DNA of 4,574 nucleotides, taken from IMG/VR virus record IMGVR_UViG_2547132269_000010; one strand, given 5' to 3'. Origin of the DNA: a virus (lineage: Duplodnaviria; Heunggongvirae; Uroviricota; Caudoviricetes). Positions within the stretch are counted from its first letter, which is position 1, and each line of letters begins with the position of its first letter. Position numbers and translations under genes: made by a program. Positions 1 through 4,574 of the stretch are shown here, in pieces. The notes below the pieces were generated by a model. It did no database searches. It was given only the letters and a program-made list of their open reading frames with translations, and was not told the DNA's origin.

Positions 1-300
1 TTGATATCGAGATTTTTGGCAGCACTATTACTACAAGATGCACATGATCTGGCTATACATTTAACTCCAGAACCTCGCAATCCTTTATCCCGCAGGGTCC
101 TAAAGCGGTATTTTGGCGTCCAGATTATGTGATATTTGCAATGCCAATATACATGTGAATGTGACTAGTCCTGATATAAGTTGACACTTTTCTGTCTGTA
201 ATGGAGTGCCCCGCGCCCCTGGACAAATCTGTAGATAAACGGAAATGCACCAAGGGTTCTTCTGTTTGCGAATGCTAGCTGTCTAGTCGTTGATTAAGCC

Positions 301-330
301 TTGACATTTGTGATTCATGTTATCCATAGT
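301..330 (+). promoter_or_regulatory. candidate sigma70 promoter for the zinc-ribbon/MTase operon
   Basis: Perfect -35 hexamer TTGACA at 301-306; only weak -10 candidates 17-18 bp downstream (CATAGT at 325-330); about 40 bp upstream of the 373 start codon. A second TTGACA at 181-186 has no properly spaced -10. Confidence 0.25.
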
Positions 331-372
331 GAGTAAATCATTTTCATCTGATGTTATAAAAGAGAGGTACCA

Positions 373-648
373 ATGGTGACATGTAATTGTTGTGGTAAGG
401 CTCTGAACAAAGGTATTTGGACTCTGGATGGCAAATATAAAAGTTGTCCATTATGTTCATCTACGCATGGCGTTGAGCACATTTTCCGGCGCTATCCCGA
501 GGACTTTGGAACCACTGATGCCAGGATTACGCCGACGAACCCTGATGGTGCTCAAAGCTATTGTATTGACTGTCGGGGATTAGATAAAGGACAATCATCA
601 CTGGTAGATCTCACCAAACAGAGATTATGTAATACAGTGCGAATTTAA
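373..648 (+). CDS. small Cys-rich zinc-ribbon protein (91 aa) with Mu Com-like N-terminal finger; putative regulator or accessory factor of the downstream methyltransferase
   Basis: ATG at 373 preceded by Shine-Dalgarno AGAGAGG (361-367, 5-nt spacing). N-terminus has CxxC (C4,C7) then GKALNK, then CPLC (C25,C28); same spacing and the C-x-K-x-L-x-K signature as I recall for phage Mu Com (CKNCNKLLFK...CPRC). Further CxxC at C64/C67. Stop TAA (646-648) overlaps the ATG of the next gene (TAATG). Function inferred, not demonstrated. Confidence 0.6.
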   Translation: MVTCNCCGKALNKGIWTLDGKYKSCPLCSSTHGVEHIFRRYPEDFGTTDARITPTNPDGAQSYCIDCRGLDKGQSSLVDLTKQRLCNTVRI

Positions 649-1328
649 TGAATTTAAATCAGTTAGATGCAGTTGAATGGCTAAAAACACTCCCTTCTGG
701 GAGTGTTGATCTATTTGTAACAGATCCTCCATATGAATCGCTTGAAAAACATAGAAAAATAGGCACAACAACTAGGCTGAAAGTAAGTAAGTCTTCTAGT
801 AATGAATGGTTTGCTATCTTTCCAAACAGTAGATTTGGAGAGCTTTTAACCGAAATGTATCGTGTCCTCAAAAAGAATCGTCATCTATATATTTTCTGTG
901 ATCAAGAAACTATGTTCCATCTGAAGCCGATTGCCGAAGATGCTGGGTTTAAGTTTTGGAAACCAATTGTCTGGAACAAGATGGCTATCGGAATGGGATA
1001 TCATTACCGTGCCAAGTACGAATTTGTTTTGTTTTTTGAGAAAGGAAAGAGGAAGCTCAACAACTTAGGTATACCTGACATCTTGGAAGTGAAGAGGGTG
1101 ATGAGAGGGTATCCAACCGAAAAACCAGTTGATCTTATTAAGATTTTGATTGAGCAAAGTACAGTTCAAGGTGAGTCTGTATGTGATCCTTTTTTTGGTT
1201 CTGGCTCAACTTTAGTTGCAGCTTTCGAGTTAGGACGTTCTTTCTTAGGGACAGATATTTCGCCATCAGCTCATGCTTACTTTAAGCAGCGGTTATCTGA
1301 CAGCCAGTTAATACTTGACACGCTGTAA
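648..1328 (+). CDS. DNA methyltransferase, beta-class N6-adenine/N4-cytosine family (226 aa), probably N6-adenine-specific
   Basis: Motif IV DPPY near the N-terminus (VTDPPYES, codons at 723-734) and motif I near the C-terminus (DPFFGSGST, about 1185-1211), preceded by the conserved YPTEKP box: the beta-class order IV then I. No Shine-Dalgarno; start overlaps the upstream stop, implying translational coupling. Stop TAA at 1326-1328. Confidence 0.9.
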   Translation: MNLNQLDAVEWLKTLPSGSVDLFVTDPPYESLEKHRKIGTTTRLKVSKSSSNEWFAIFPNSRFGELLTEMYRVLKKNRHLYIFCDQETMFHLKPIAEDAGFKFWKPIVWNKMAIGMGYHYRAKYEFVLFFEKGKRKLNNLGIPDILEVKRVMRGYPTEKPVDLIKILIEQSTVQGESVCDPFFGSGSTLVAAFELGRSFLGTDISPSAHAYFKQRLSDSQLILDTL

Positions 1329-1336
1329 TGTTGGAT

Positions 1337-1358
1337 GGGGTTTGTAGTGAACCCCTTT
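1337..1358 (+). terminator. possible weak intrinsic terminator after the methyltransferase gene
   Basis: Hairpin GGGGTT (1337-1342) / AACCCC (1350-1355) with 7-nt loop, followed by only TTT (1356-1358); begins 9 nt after the MTase stop codon. The short T-tract makes this weak. Confidence 0.3.
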
Positions 1359-1596
1359 CAAAGAGTTTAGTCTCAAGGATTACTGGGGGGGAAGTAAAGT
1401 GATGAATTCAACTCCCTGATTGGAAGCTGAACTCGAATGTGCAATTAGGTGGAGATATTTGAAGCTTTAACGGAAGATTTCTCTTGTTGGGGTCTGAACT
1501 ATCTTTTCTGCATTTGGAGTGCACTCAGACCTCATGAATATAACGGTGGGTTACCGCCGAACGAATAGGAAAATAGATACTGGAAAAAATCTAAAA

Positions 1597-1785
1597 TCAT
1601 GGCAGTTTTTGTTGACCACTACAGTTCTTGGTAACAGGGATAATGTAGCGAAACTGCCAGATTTTACTTCCGCTGGATTTGATGAGTAGCTCAAGGCCAT
1701 CACCATCATAGAGAACATAGTCCGCTTCTTTGGGGTTGGCTGATTCGATTTCCTTAACGGATAGAGGTTTGGTTTGTCTTGCCAT
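1597..1785 (-). pseudogene. truncated/decayed P4 (IntA)-type tyrosine integrase, N-terminal arm-binding region only
   Basis: Minus-strand ORF from ATG 1783-1785 gives MARQTKPLSVKEIESANPKEADYVLYDGDGLELLIKSSGSKIWQFRY, closely matching the conserved N-terminus of enterobacterial P4-family integrases as I recall them (MARKTKPL...DGDGL.LLIKSSGSK.WQFRY). The frame stops after 62 codons at 1597-1599. An overlapping shifted frame reads ...FRFFPVSI..., possibly residual frameshifted homology. No catalytic domain follows on the minus strand. Confidence 0.6.
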
Positions 1786-1803
1786 TGCCGGGTTTCCATA
1801 GTT

Positions 1804-1858
1804 TTAGGCACCTCAAAAACAATAAAGCTTTATGAGGTGCCTAACAAGGTGCCTAAAA
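1804..1858. promoter_or_regulatory. palindromic plus direct repeats of AGGTGCCTAA immediately upstream of the integrase start; candidate operator/Int-binding or leader structure
   Basis: Perfect 12-bp inverted repeat TTAGGCACCTCA (1804-1815) / TGAGGTGCCTAA (1833-1844) with 17-nt spacer, plus a third direct copy AGGTGCCTAA at 1847-1856; lies 19-73 nt upstream (minus-strand sense) of the integrase ATG. Confidence 0.3.
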
Positions 1859-1910
1859 GGTTCGGATTTAATTAGTTGGCATCGGACTTCGCGGGACAAA
1901 TTCAAGGCAC

Positions 1911-1942
1911 AAAAAAGCCCGCGGAGCTTACGCCGTGCGGGC
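1911..1942 (-). terminator. putative rho-independent terminator (minus strand) between crr and the integrase region
   Basis: GC-rich hairpin GCCCGC(GG) at 1917-1924 pairing with (CC)GTGCGGGC at 1933-1942, flanked by A6 at 1911-1916 on the plus strand (a U6 tail after the hairpin on the minus-strand transcript). On the plus strand it is followed only by TCTT. Confidence 0.35.
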
Positions 1943-2146
1943 TCTTAGGACTTCATCGGATGACTCTGGTAATCACCGATGGAGAATTTTGGTGGGCTGG
2001 CGGAGTTTGAATAAATATTGTATTGCTTTGATTTTTAATGATTTTGTTTAATTCATTTTTTGTGCGTATACCTAATCGTATACCAATGGCTGGAAGTTAA
2101 TGTGAAATGAAAGCGCATTTTTACTTGGATTGATGCTATATCGTAC

Positions 2147-2270
2147 AGGAAAAAAATTTTTTTCGAAAGAACTGTTCACACTGTTCACCTTTCTGTTTTC
2201 TCCTTTTATTTCAGAGTGATAGGTGGTGAATAATGGGTGAAGGGTGAACATTCGATTCTTCACCTCCGGC
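2147..2270. repeat. crr-like cis-replication repeat unit 1 (iteron array)
   Basis: Begins with A7T7 (2150-2163). Contains TGTTCACA (2173-2180), TGTTCACC (2182-2189), GGTGAACA (2243-2250) and variants GGTGAATA, GGTGAAGG, TCTTCACC (2257-2264). Roughly 80-85% identical by eye to unit 2, offset 181 bp. Confidence 0.7.
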
Positions 2271-2276
2271 ATTCTG

Positions 2277-2326
2277 CCGGTGTGACTTGTGCAGGGGATT
2301 AATTTCCCGTGCTGAAATCACACCGG
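2277..2326. repeat. inverted repeat in the spacer between the two crr units
   Basis: CCGGTGTGA (2277-2285) and TCACACCGG (2318-2326) are perfect 9-bp inverted arms around a 32-nt spacer that contains a nested near-palindrome (GGGATTAATTTCCC). Confidence 0.4.
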
Positions 2327-2449
2327 AAGAAAAAAAGTTTTTTTTGATTTGATTGTTCACACTGTTCACCTTTCGTTTTTCTCTTTTAATTTCAGTGTGA
2401 TAACGGGTGAATATACGGTGAAGGGTGAACAGTGGATTGTTCACCTTCG
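2327..2449. repeat. crr-like cis-replication repeat unit 2 (iteron array)
   Basis: Begins with A7-G-T8 (2330-2345). Contains TGTTCACA (2354-2361), TGTTCACC (2363-2370 and 2438-2445), GGTGAACA (2424-2431) and variants. Direct repeat of unit 1. Confidence 0.7.
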
Positions 2450-2461
2450 GGGAATTCAGGG

Positions 2462-2504: not shown

Positions 2505-4574
2505 TCAGGTTGTTGCAGGGTCGTCACATTTTGGCAGCCAGTCGCCGTAGCTTTCCTCTTTCAGCGTCAGGTTGGTCTGTATCCCCTGTTTGGTATGGCG
2601 CTTCTCGTAATTCAGTCCGTATTCCTTCAGCATCACCGGCAGCCCCAGCCCGAACATTTTCAGACTGAGTACATTCCGGTAGCCGTTTGCCTCCATGTAG
2701 GCCAGATAGGCGTGATAGAGGTATTTACGGTAATTACGCGGGATGATACTGGCGTTCCCCATATACATGCCGCTGGTCTGCGGCAGGGTTTCCAGATAGC
2801 CGATAAAATCAAACGTCGGGTCGGCATCCCGTTTGATGTTCAGTGCCTCGTCTGAGTTCTGCTGGGACTGAAGCAGTGACCGGGCGAGCATCGGGTCGCT
2901 GAACTTCTGCATCAGGTGACGCACGATGACCGCCAGCTCGCGGGTGATTTTGTCCTTAAGCTGCGGGTCGCGCTCCTGCGGGGCTATCTGTTCCGGGAAG
3001 TGAATAATCACCCGCCGGCGTGACACGCCGCCGCTGCGGTCGGTGAAGCGCATCGGGTTATTGTTCACGGCCAGAATCACCGCCGGGATATGCGTGGAGT
3101 ACGCATCCCGGTATTTCGGGTCAACGGACACCGCGTCGCCGCCGGTGATGGCCTTGAGTCCGGCACCGTCGCCGCTCCATTTTTCCTGGTCCGGCAGGCG
3201 TATCAGTGAGAAGCCAGTTAACGCGGCACGTTCACGCGGGGATTCCAGCGTCTCGATGGTGGCCGACGTGGCGTTATCCTCCCCGGCCAGCAGGGTGGCT
3301 ATTTCGGCCATGATACTTTTGCCGCTGCCGCCGGGACCGGTCACCTCCAGAAAGAGCTGCCAGTCGTAGCGGTTTGCCAGCACCATAAACAGTGCGGCCA
3401 GAATCACGTCGCGTTTTTCCGCACGACCACCGGCAGCACGGTCAAGCCAGCGCCAGAACGCGGGAGCGTGGGTTTCCAGCGTTTCACCGTCCACCGGCGG
3501 GGTGAAATCCACATCACACAGGGTACGCATCCAGTGTGACGGACTGTGCGGGTGGAACGTACCGTTCTGCGTGTCGAGCACGCCGTTACGAAAGCCAATC
3601 AGGCGGCGGGAGGGGGCTTCCTGCTGCGGAATAATCAGCTTCAGGGTGTCCACCACGGAGGCCACCTTCCCGGAGGAGAACGGCGCGCGCAGCCGCTGAA
3701 ACAGCCCGGCCACATCCCGGGCAAAGTCCTGTGGTGGCAGCACCTTCCAGACACCATTTTCATAGCGGGACAGAAGCTGGCCGTTGGCATCGACCGCGAG
3801 CGCCTCGCCGTAATGCTCATAGATACGCATGGCCTTTTCGCTGGTACTCATGGCGGAAAACTCCGCTTCGCTCATGGTGTCGAACGGGCTTTCAGCCGGT
3901 GGCCGGATTGCATCATAAATGGCCTTACGGGTGGCCTCCCCGCCGTACTGCGTGAAGGCATCATTCCAGTCACCGAAGACCGGCGGCAGGGCAACAACAC
4001 CTTCACACGCATCTGCGGCTGCGGCGGCTTTTTTCTGGCCGTCACCGCTGAGGTCACGGTCAGCGGCAAGGACAATCTGACAGGCGGGGGGCTTCTGCCG
4101 GGCAAGGCTGGCCAGAGAAAGGAGGTTCACGGAAGAAAGCGCCACCATCACCGTTTCACCGGTCAGGTGATGCACGGTAAGTGCGGTCGCGTATCCCTCC
4201 GCTATCCACAGACGTTTTCCGGCCTGATTCTGTCCTTCAAGGATGTGACAGGTGCCCCTGACCTGTCCGCCTTTCAGGGTGCGCTTACGGCCGTCAGCAC
4301 TGATTAACTGAAGGTTAACCAGTTCGCCGCTGTCGTCATACAGTGGCACCACAAGGTCACCGGCGCGCCAGCTCACGCCACCGGCTCTGTGTGTGCCGGT
4401 CAGCATCCGGCATTCCCGGCCGGGAAAGCCCTTGCGGGTCAGGTAGGCGTTACCGGTTCCGGGACGGGGTTTCGCCATCAGGGTTTGTGCCAGTGCGGCG
4501 GCGTTCTTCCGGGCGGCTTCTGTTTCAGCAACGGCGGCGGCCGTCACTGCCGGGTCAGCCGGTGGCAGGCTGGC
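2505..4574 (-). CDS. alpha: P4 alpha-type bifunctional primase-helicase (replication protein), 5'-partial; N-terminus beyond the window end
   Basis: Minus-strand frame is open from the window edge (no stop between 4574 and the first start-like codon, GTG at 4545-4547) to TGA at 2505-2507. Translation has TOPRIM-type primase motifs (WIAEGYATA with Glu codon at 4197-4199; AADRDLSGDG), a Walker A P-loop GPGGSGKS (3315-3338) and a C-terminal domain. It is followed by TGTTCACC iteron repeats, the known binding sites of the P4 alpha C-terminal domain. Confidence 0.9.
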   Translation of the reverse strand, partial: ASLPPADPAVTAAAVAETEAARKNAAALAQTLMAKPRPGTGNAYLTRKGFPGRECRMLTGTHRAGGVSWRAGDLVVPLYDDSGELVNLQLISADGRKRTLKGGQVRGTCHILEGQNQAGKRLWIAEGYATALTVHHLTGETVMVALSSVNLLSLASLARQKPPACQIVLAADRDLSGDGQKKAAAAADACEGVVALPPVFGDWNDAFTQYGGEATRKAIYDAIRPPAESPFDTMSEAEFSAMSTSEKAMRIYEHYGEALAVDANGQLLSRYENGVWKVLPPQDFARDVAGLFQRLRAPFSSGKVASVVDTLKLIIPQQEAPSRRLIGFRNGVLDTQNGTFHPHSPSHWMRTLCDVDFTPPVDGETLETHAPAFWRWLDRAAGGRAEKRDVILAALFMVLANRYDWQLFLEVTGPGGSGKSIMAEIATLLAGEDNATSATIETLESPRERAALTGFSLIRLPDQEKWSGDGAGLKAITGGDAVSVDPKYRDAYSTHIPAVILAVNNNPMRFTDRSGGVSRRRVIIHFPEQIAPQERDPQLKDKITRELAVIVRHLMQKFSDPMLARSLLQSQQNSDEALNIKRDADPTFDFIGYLETLPQTSGMYMGNASIIPRNYRKYLYHAYLAYMEANGYRNVLSLKMFGLGLPVMLKEYGLNYEKRHTKQGIQTNLTLKEESYGDWLPKCDDPATT

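Follow-up and report, generated by a model that had tools for sequence, protein, structure and literature searches.

In phage Mu, the gene of the small zinc protein Com lies just upstream of the DNA-modification gene mom and overlaps it, and Com turns on the translation of mom. Other systems that invite comparison are the C proteins of Type II restriction-modification systems and the M.SsoII-type methylases with a fused regulatory helix-turn-helix (HTH), the HNH Type II restriction enzymes R.KpnI, R.Hpy99I and R.PacI with their zinc-binding DNA-recognition regions, the small beta-class amino-methyltransferases (DpnA/M1.HpyAVI-like enzymes, plasmid PRK13699, M.MboIIA, M.RsrI and CcrM), and the cargo of the defence hotspot of P4 satellites. 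The locus examined here lies in the 4,574-nucleotide (nt) stretch of the virus record IMGVR_UViG_2547132269_000010 (the window; all coordinates are those of the whole stretch), in which a cysteine-rich open reading frame (ORF) of 91 amino acids (aa) overlaps a methylase ORF of 226 aa. From the nucleotide letters only, this cassette had been proposed to be a Com-like zinc ribbon coupled to a beta-class methyltransferase, inside a P4-like backbone (hereafter the sequence-only reading). Both ORFs are read from the sequence as had been described (table 1). In the 91-aa protein, an unnamed zinc domain that is wired to amino-methyltransferases and restriction-type nucleases occurs in free-standing form, and the cassette is a mobile two-gene module. 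Overall, it is a methylase operon with a small accessory protein, whose unusual part is the partner and not the methylase. An appealing but wrong path of annotation, Com-like and P4 cargo, is thereby corrected.

The methylase itself is an ordinary, fresh member of a familiar enzyme type. It matches N6_N4_Mtase (PF01555) at E = 5.5e-36 (125 bits against a cut-off of 26.7 bits) along profile positions 1-220 of 221, and MTase_II of PADLOC at 5.8e-36. The DPPY motif (residues 26-29) is N-terminal of FGSGS (183-187), which is the beta-class order of motif IV followed by motif I; the Pfam match and this order bear out the class that had been assigned to the protein. The small beta-class amino-methyltransferases share the N6_N4_Mtase domain, the IV-to-I order and a length of about 220-260 aa. 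The window enzyme differs from them in that its scores stay below the cut-off set by NCBIfam for each named subfamily (for PRK13699, 87.6 against 244). Its relatives by sequence in PDB are 8s9m (an N4-cytosine enzyme, 1.7e-15), CcrM, M.MboIIA, the DpnA-annotated HpyAVI and M.RsrI. As a rule, DPPY favours N6-adenine, and the motif suggests this base as the target. Orthologues with 63-94% identity are present in more than 100 loci.

The zinc protein was used as the seed of a HMMER profile search run in full against 1.84 billion representatives. Of these, 197 matched at E ≤ 1e-3, 109 of them also at E ≤ 1e-10, while a word-indexed search gave only seven close clusters. The earlier suggestion of a distinct family is in agreement with this large, unnamed zinc family. 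The 91-aa protein has no match in Pfam, NCBIfam or PADLOC (0 Pfam families even at E ≤ 10), its only match in PHROGs is phrog_7682 (function unknown; E = 1e-4), and tblastn of the GenBank phages returned nothing below E = 2. For the domain as a whole, neither an entry in the Pfam, NCBIfam and PADLOC libraries of 2025-2026, nor a PDB relative, nor a trace in the literature was found, and it appears to be undescribed. Literature searches on DUF3553, on DUF6996/6997/7226/6339/6998, on zinc ribbons with HNH and restriction-modification, and on orphan methylases with zinc fingers gave nothing relevant.

The core of the domain has about 70 residues and follows the motif C-x2-C-x~17-K[SA]CPxCS-x3-G-x2-H[VI][FY]...FG-x-[ST]-x2-R...G-x-QS[YWH]C-x2-[CH]R...C, into which the window protein fits. 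Near-invariant positions are C4, C7, K23, C25, P26, C28, S29, H36, F45, G46, R51, G59, Q61, S62, C64, C/H67, R68 and C86. The CxxC pairs that had been noticed before are indeed C4/C7 and C25/C28 with 17 residues between them, together with the extra C64-I-D-C67; C86 is to be added. From these eight conserved ligand candidates, two zinc sites would be formed, C4/C7/C25/C28 and H36/C64/C67/C86, and the exchange of Cys and His at position 67 within the family fits a metal ligand. The invariant polar residues are K23, R51, R68, Q61 and S62, no Asp or Glu being invariant. The family is mildly basic (median isoelectric point 8.5), with 77% of its members carrying a net positive charge. An AlphaFold model built on an alignment of 56 family members (pLDDT 93.6, pTM 0.82; with 8 close sequences the pLDDT was 50 and the model unusable) predicts one short helix (residues 26-32) and short strands, and no match of the model to any solved fold was found.

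Both ORFs of the cassette are real genes under purifying selection, with dN/dS values of 0.04-0.16 (zinc gene) and 0.03-0.12 (methylase). The zinc gene is therefore functional and not the decaying stump of a nuclease. In its stand-alone form, the protein keeps a constant length of 91-93 aa across many genera and has its own conserved C-terminal cysteine, C86. A minimal variant of 60 aa (KASCPCRAC...FGLRNMGDG...QSYCRECR...C), in which the first CxxC is missing, is located about 80 nt upstream of orthologous methylases in three loci (L082 2234-2416, L089 790-1026 and L112 2224-2406). The highly repetitive P0116 (1568 aa) matches profile positions 41-80 six times at E = 1e-10; this is probably an artefact of composition or repeats and no true relative.

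Stand-alone zinc proteins of 80-115 aa make up 63 of the 149 representatives listed. Among the 85 multi-domain representatives, at least 30 carry an N-terminal Tudor-like DUF3553 before the zinc domain, eight have a C-terminal HNH and one more an HNH_2, while DndB (P0027), a PLD-like domain (PLDc_2, P0145) and DUF6339 (P0062) precede the zinc domain once each. The nuclease-free Tudor fusion (DUF3553, 30/85) is thus the commonest fused architecture identified, and Tudor-like fusions recall CarD-type binders of RNA polymerase. In P0124, P0140, P0153 and P0156, the zinc domain is followed by an unnamed middle domain, with or without HNH. This middle domain (IRFLPMSK...YYY...LFQY.G.IIGYA), placed between zinc domain and HNH, was seen in P0124, P0137, P0140, P0153, P0156 and L069 (4001-5089); it has no Pfam match, and a PUA/EVE-like nature is a guess. 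An apparent Rosetta-stone fusion of the zinc domain with a methylase (P0067) was discarded as a frameshifted read-through.

The domain almost always adjoins an amino-methyltransferase gene, and this association was examined in both directions. In a genome scan of 40 zinc-gene loci, an orthologue of the window methylase (69-93% identity) begins 3-45 nt after the stand-alone zinc gene in 29 cases. Without exception, the close homologues from Enterobacter, Citrobacter and their relatives are followed by an overlapping methylase. In the Enterobacter/Citrobacter type, the pair occupies the margin of a small islet that also contains a resolvase gene, an ORF of 311 aa and the gene of a DUF6538 tyrosine recombinase. 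Homologues of about 50% identity show the same pairing in a Tn7/CRISPR-associated transposon (CAST)-like element (TniQ, Csy2, Csy3; L017-L018), in Celerinatantimonas (L019) and in Salinivibrio (L020-L021). The pair and its 5′ flank (the conserved module of table 1) are the sole DNA common to the window and the Enterobacter/Citrobacter-type islands (L001-L010), at 82% nucleotide identity, and this homology stops 28 nt before the methylase stop codon. The settings of the pair are thus an ssrA island, DUF6538-integrase islets, Tn7/CAST cargo, a prophage end and an integron-like context, and across the compared loci no further conserved neighbour gene was found beside it. In the window, the cassette is AT-rich, as previously stated (38-43% GC against 61% in the alpha gene).

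In the Vibrio copies (L044 ~450-590 and L054 ~3860-4000), sequences of the type ...GGGCGTTAGGTTAC are found upstream, with toxin-antitoxin and GNAT cassettes nearby, which suggests that the Vibrio pair travels as an integron gene cassette; a motif TGCATA...TTGCATAT is common to L044, L054 and L061. In another group of loci (L022-L024 and L026-L028, ~4001-4282), the stand-alone zinc gene directly follows a GajA-like (AAA_15/OLD-TOPRIM) and GajB-like (UvrD) pair that is embedded behind a Type I hsdS, and no small methylase comes after it. Further copies lie near SIR2-like or helicase genes.

The fused forms of the domain keep similar company. Zn-HNH proteins stand beside N6_N4 methylases in L029, L069 and L157. 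For instance, the operons of L029 (3-2862) and L069 (2366-5835; Ruminococcus metagenome-assembled genome, MAG) consist of a D12 methylase, a MutH-like nuclease, a Zn-(middle domain)-HNH protein and a permuted N6_N4 methylase, a two-methylase layout that recalls the DpnII-type GATC systems. The Zn-HNH protein P0034 overlaps its downstream N6_N4 methylase and is preceded by MutH-like and D12 methylase genes, whereas P0021 is divergent from the N6_N4 methylase (L157). Tudor-Zn proteins are encoded ahead of a D12 methylase in L025 and of an N6_N4 methylase in L156, and DndB-Zn ends an operon of DUF6996/6997, N6_N4 methylase and a 198-aa protein (L159). In L067 (Prevotella MAG), the zinc gene comes after a D12 methylase and a DUF6996/6997/7226 protein. 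Proteins with DUF6996/DUF6997, with or without DUF7226, recur between the methylase and the zinc-domain protein (L067 2659-3987, L159 2757-3533) and are a candidate for an uncharacterised restriction component. Compared with the HNH Type II enzymes, the likeness is that relatives of the window protein (P0021, P0034, P0156 and that of L069) have a C-terminal HNH beside a methylase; the window protein, however, lacks the HNH part and its zinc domain matches no solved structure.

In the reverse direction, similarity to the methylase (63-94% identity) was the only criterion by which 77 metagenome loci were chosen, all of them with 300 nt or more of upstream sequence. A zinc gene is directly upstream in 26 of them and convergent downstream in one (L081), and the 60-aa variant is present in three (L082, L089 and L112). 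Thus 26-30 of the 77 orthologues carry the zinc domain and 47-51 have no zinc-domain gene beside them, and therefore the methylase does not need the zinc protein. Some of the zinc-less orthologues look like chromosomal orphans. In three others (L138, L147 and L153), an XRE-HTH gene overlaps the methylase start and a convergent ORF of about 420 aa is also present, and in L116, L135 and L155 a PD-(D/E)XK-like ORF of 152-168 aa lies downstream.

The cassette may well be a mobile, nuclease-free pair of the restriction-modification type, with the zinc protein as a non-catalytic DNA-binding partner, and this explanation is held with moderate confidence. The zinc domain is predicted to bind DNA because of its fusions to HNH, PLD-like and DndB domains, its invariant Lys, Arg, Gln and Ser residues in a family devoid of invariant acidic ones, and its mild basicity. 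The small beta-class amino-methyltransferase can work without the zinc protein; the zinc protein would be made together with it through coupled translation, and would then act on DNA as its non-catalytic partner. In the leading version, which is tentative, the zinc protein controls the level or the timing of the methylase. This version is favoured by the positional equivalence with the HTH genes of orthologous loci and by the Tudor-like fusions with their resemblance to CarD-type binders. A second and more doubtful version has the zinc protein as a reader that occupies unmethylated target sites. Going further, and with a similarly low probability, the zinc domain might represent a novel fold for DNA recognition, one that senses the target of the partner methylase in its unmethylated state. 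In HNH fusions it would aim the nuclease, and the free form with a methylase would make up a system of ‘restriction by occupancy or flagging’ that has no nuclease, or else an epigenetic pair of reader and writer, portable and moved between hosts by integrons, transposons, prophages and islands. The methylase might have an anti-restriction role; nothing specific supports such a role for the zinc protein.

Comparison with the C proteins and the M.SsoII type is relevant to the controller version. In both, a small protein (DNA-binding in the window by prediction) is encoded within a methylase operon, and in the three orthologous loci with XRE-HTH genes, these hold the overlapping upstream position of the zinc gene. 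On the other hand, the window protein is a predicted zinc domain with no match to an HTH family, no conserved operator similar to a C-box was found in 42 non-redundant upstream regions, and the window has no restriction gene to control.

Several results weigh against the favoured explanation. Eight of the 40 stand-alone zinc genes have no methylase nearby, and the zinc protein model has no structural match to any DNA-binding fold. A k-mer census of the 150 nt upstream of 42 non-redundant pairs found no operator-like motif in common, the census detecting motifs shared by loci and lineage-specific operators lying beyond its reach; the sole common k-mer was a Shine-Dalgarno of the AAGGAG type. 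Inspection of the upstream regions by eye gave no shared operator either. The conserved module begins merely 37 nt before the ATG of the zinc gene, so that no conserved promoter is carried. This lack of a common operator and of a conserved promoter weakens the version of an autoregulator. Moreover, the closest solved methylase by sequence, 8s9m, is an N4-cytosine enzyme, and because of this the call of N6-adenine comes from the DPPY motif by itself.

If the target of the zinc domain were known, restriction-modification and defence systems would gain a newly named building block, and the common ‘hypothetical protein plus methylase’ cassette of integrons, CAST transposons, prophages and pathogenicity islands would be accounted for. 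It could also provide a new compact DNA-binding module, sequence-specific or methylation-sensitive. The family exposed here is widespread, strongly conserved, sizeable, structurally distinct and experimentally tractable within restriction-modification and defence biology.

Among the other explanations, that of a miniature restriction endonuclease survives best, though it is improbable. According to it, the 91-aa protein is itself a tiny nuclease or nickase and the pair a complete Type II system. Conserved pairing with a methylase resembling those of Type II, both on mobile elements and within defence islands, is a classic signature of restriction-modification, orthologous methylases are paired elsewhere with unrelated candidate nucleases (L116, L135, L155 and L138), and in our reading of the alignment the pattern CPxC-x7-H...N-x7-CxxC superficially recalls zinc-HNH motifs. 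However, no match to a nuclease family was obtained in Pfam, NCBIfam, PADLOC or PDB, nor to an HNH or other nuclease fold, and nothing in the cassette could be recognised as a cognate endonuclease, whether by a nuclease domain or by catalytic residues. The family lacks an invariant acidic residue, the repeated fusion to a separate HNH or PLD-like nuclease domain would be redundant, the commonest fused form is the nuclease-free Tudor one, and a fifth of the scanned stand-alone copies (8/40) dispense with a methylase.

A further idea is that the zinc protein is an obligate subunit, needed by a very short methylase for DNA recognition or activation. This has a slighter chance of being right than the nuclease, even though the methylase has just 226 aa and the two genes are co-translated and, in 29 of the 40 loci, inherited as a pair. 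The 47-51 orthologues that do without the zinc gene include chromosomal orphans and apparent restriction-modification copies, and the domain is found with methylases of three unrelated types (small beta N6_N4, permuted N6_N4 and D12). In addition, the zinc protein evolves faster, as in gammaproteobacterial genera outside the close enteric clade it shows 46-57% identity against 69-74% for the methylase.

A Com-like translational activator is very unlikely. In that explanation, the zinc protein binds the mRNA of the cassette and turns on translation of the overlapped methylase, as Com does for mom. The arrangement is certainly reminiscent: a small zinc protein with an N-terminal CxxC...CxxC ribbon is encoded just upstream of a DNA-modification gene and overlaps it, the TAA of the zinc gene (646-648) and the ATG of the methylase (648-650) having one base in common, and, as the sequence-only reading had pointed out, the 20 nt that precede position 648 contain no purine-rich Shine-Dalgarno. 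The TAATG overlap is also found in L001, L003, L004 and L032, and an ATGA overlap in L074. Overlap with the start of the modification gene is confined to the enteric clade. Loci outside it (Vibrio type) have in its place an AGG-containing spacer of 6-14 nt, for example TAGAGGTTCAATG. The proposed translational coupling holds as tight or translational, with TAATG/ATGA overlaps in the enteric clade and 6-14 nt gaps in the Vibrio-type clade.

The Com family itself was not recovered. A profile search of the 91-aa protein gave no match to Zn_ribbon_Com in Pfam at E ≤ 10, while in the same search a Mu Com control sequence matched this family (PF10122) at 2.7e-09 (36.8 bits against a cut-off of 22.9 bits). 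Alignment of the zinc-family profile with Com by hhalign reached 18% probability (E = 0.0013) over 28 columns, which cover only the generic CxxC...CxxC ribbon, pairwise BLASTP gave E = 0.07, and there is no fold match. The alignment of the N-terminal CxxC-17-CxxC ribbon with Com at the level of the motif speaks for a Com-like protein; homology to Com was ruled out by these three comparisons, the first with its positive control. Com has one Cys4 site in 62 aa, whereas the window protein has two candidate zinc sites in 91 aa, the second being conserved as well, and is about 30 residues longer. The target gene is a methylase that uses S-adenosylmethionine and not Mom.

In the RNA fold of positions 600-730, the methylase AUG lies in a weak AU stem only, and no inhibitory stem of the Com/mom type was found over it. 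A strong hairpin, AACACTCCC TTCT GGGAGTGTT, with a perfect 9-bp stem, is formed within the methylase gene, 38 nt downstream of its start. The enteric clade (L001, L003, L004 and L032; relatives of 82% identity) preserves it at 100% identity, and either an RNA element or a palindromic site for a protein is conceivable. The hairpin speaks for a Com-like mechanism within that clade, but the Vibrio-type orthologues have neither the hairpin nor the overlap. Finally, the fusions to HNH, PLD-like and DndB domains point to binding of DNA and not of mRNA, the domain occurs beside three methylase families in varied orientations including the divergent one, and two thirds of the methylase orthologues are zinc-less. 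It is hardly credible that the small ORF is a functionless leftover of the N-terminus of a Zn-HNH restriction enzyme; such enzymes exist in the same gene order (L029 and L069), but the constant length across genera, the own C86 and the selection data largely refute this.

The second part of the sequence-only reading that failed is the placement of the cassette inside the P4-like backbone. The cassette is located beyond the satellite attR and a truncated integrase (table 1). The attR separates it from the repeats and the alpha gene, and it does not lie between the two att sites of the satellite. Window positions 1625-2011 are 95% identical to the ‘ssrA - integrase’ junction of E. coli chromosomes, and the integrase remnant is 95% identical to full-length integrases adjoining ssrA in E. 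coli. In NZ_CP098214, the end of ssrA corresponds to window position 1989 and the homology ceases at 2011, so that 1989-2011 is the duplicated 3′ end of ssrA, i.e., the attR of the satellite. Judged from these junctions, the integrase remnant and the cassette are parts of an older ssrA island, in tandem with the satellite.

Table 1. Features of the window, with positions in the whole stretch of 4,574 nt.
Positions	Strand	Feature	Basis and details
1..132	+	Tail of an ORF	ORF scan
162..201	.	Possible insertion sequence (IS) remnant, 40 nt	Exact match to sequences at or close to IS3-family transposase genes of Escherichia plasmids
301..330	+	Promoter-like site TTGACA-18-CATAGT	Consensus scan only; immediately upstream of the conserved module
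336..1300	+	Conserved mobile two-gene module (5′ untranslated region, zinc-protein gene, methylase gene)	Nucleotide homology
362..367	+	Shine-Dalgarno GAGAGG of the zinc-protein gene	Sequence reading; 5 nt before the ATG
373..648	+	Gene of the 91-aa stand-alone protein, one domain with two predicted zinc sites	ORF, ATG at 373
646..650	+	TAATG stop/start overlap, junction of termination-reinitiation type	Sequence reading
648..1328	+	226-aa beta-class amino-DNA methyltransferase	Pfam N6_N4_Mtase; DPPY nt 723-734, FGSGS nt 1194-1208
686..707	+	Perfect 9-bp stem with 4-nt loop	Within methylase codons 13-20
1597..1785	-	P4-type ssrA-island integrase, 5′ remnant, 62 codons	Pfam Arm-DNA-bind_3; NCBIfam PRK09692 residues 1-56
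1989..2011	-	Copy of the last 23 nt of ssrA, satellite attR	Homology to E. coli ssrA-integrase junction
2147..2450	.	Two 123-nt direct repeats	81% identical, 181-nt spacing
2505..4574	-	P4 alpha-type primase-helicase, runs off the window	Pfam Toprim_3, D5_N, DUF5906, Pox_D5

The exact 91-aa protein is present in many assemblies. There, the cassette lies at one end of an island with EspG and a Peptidase_S6 autotransporter, and the truncated integrase comes after the cassette. In L011 and L013-L016, the integrase remnant is followed by a full P4-like satellite (alpha, DUF5375, Derepression, Phage_ASH, AlpA, Ogr_Delta and Psu). L012 has this island with its cassette as well (99.3% identity to window positions 1-1629), and here they adjoin smpB directly and P4 genes are absent. 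The position of attR and this satellite-free island rule out the reading as P4 cargo. The likeness to the defence hotspot of P4 satellites is that a P4-like satellite adjoins the cassette and that related satellites carry defence genes after psu; the difference is that the cassette lies outside attR and occurs free of a satellite. The true cargo position of the satellite is the one right after psu, where in L014 (18942-20276) ORFs with HamA domains and a DEAD/ResIII helicase (Hachiman-like) are located.

The integrase remnant of the window lacks, at 1623-1625, 188 bp that are kept in L011 (11252-11441) and in L013-L016, where the fragment measures 117 aa against 62 aa in the window. This loss indicates that the remnant is still eroding. 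At megablast sensitivity, window positions 1-1624 are absent from all 5,426 complete E. coli genomes. Window positions 1-30 recur in inverted orientation about 8 kb away (L011 1423-1452), beyond the EspG and autotransporter genes; together with the IS3-matching stretch, this repeat possibly represents IS remnants that bracket virulence genes.

As regards the remaining parts of the window, the promoter-like site upstream of the module shows no conservation in L001 or L032. The direct repeats resemble the crr of P4. No tRNA or tmRNA gene was found in the window, and Rfam gave nothing beyond a far sub-threshold match to IsrM at 1911-1967. Just upstream of the start of the truncated integrase, at 1804-1856, the motif AGGTGCCTAA occurs three times, once inverted, and these copies are likely arm or promoter sites of the integrase.

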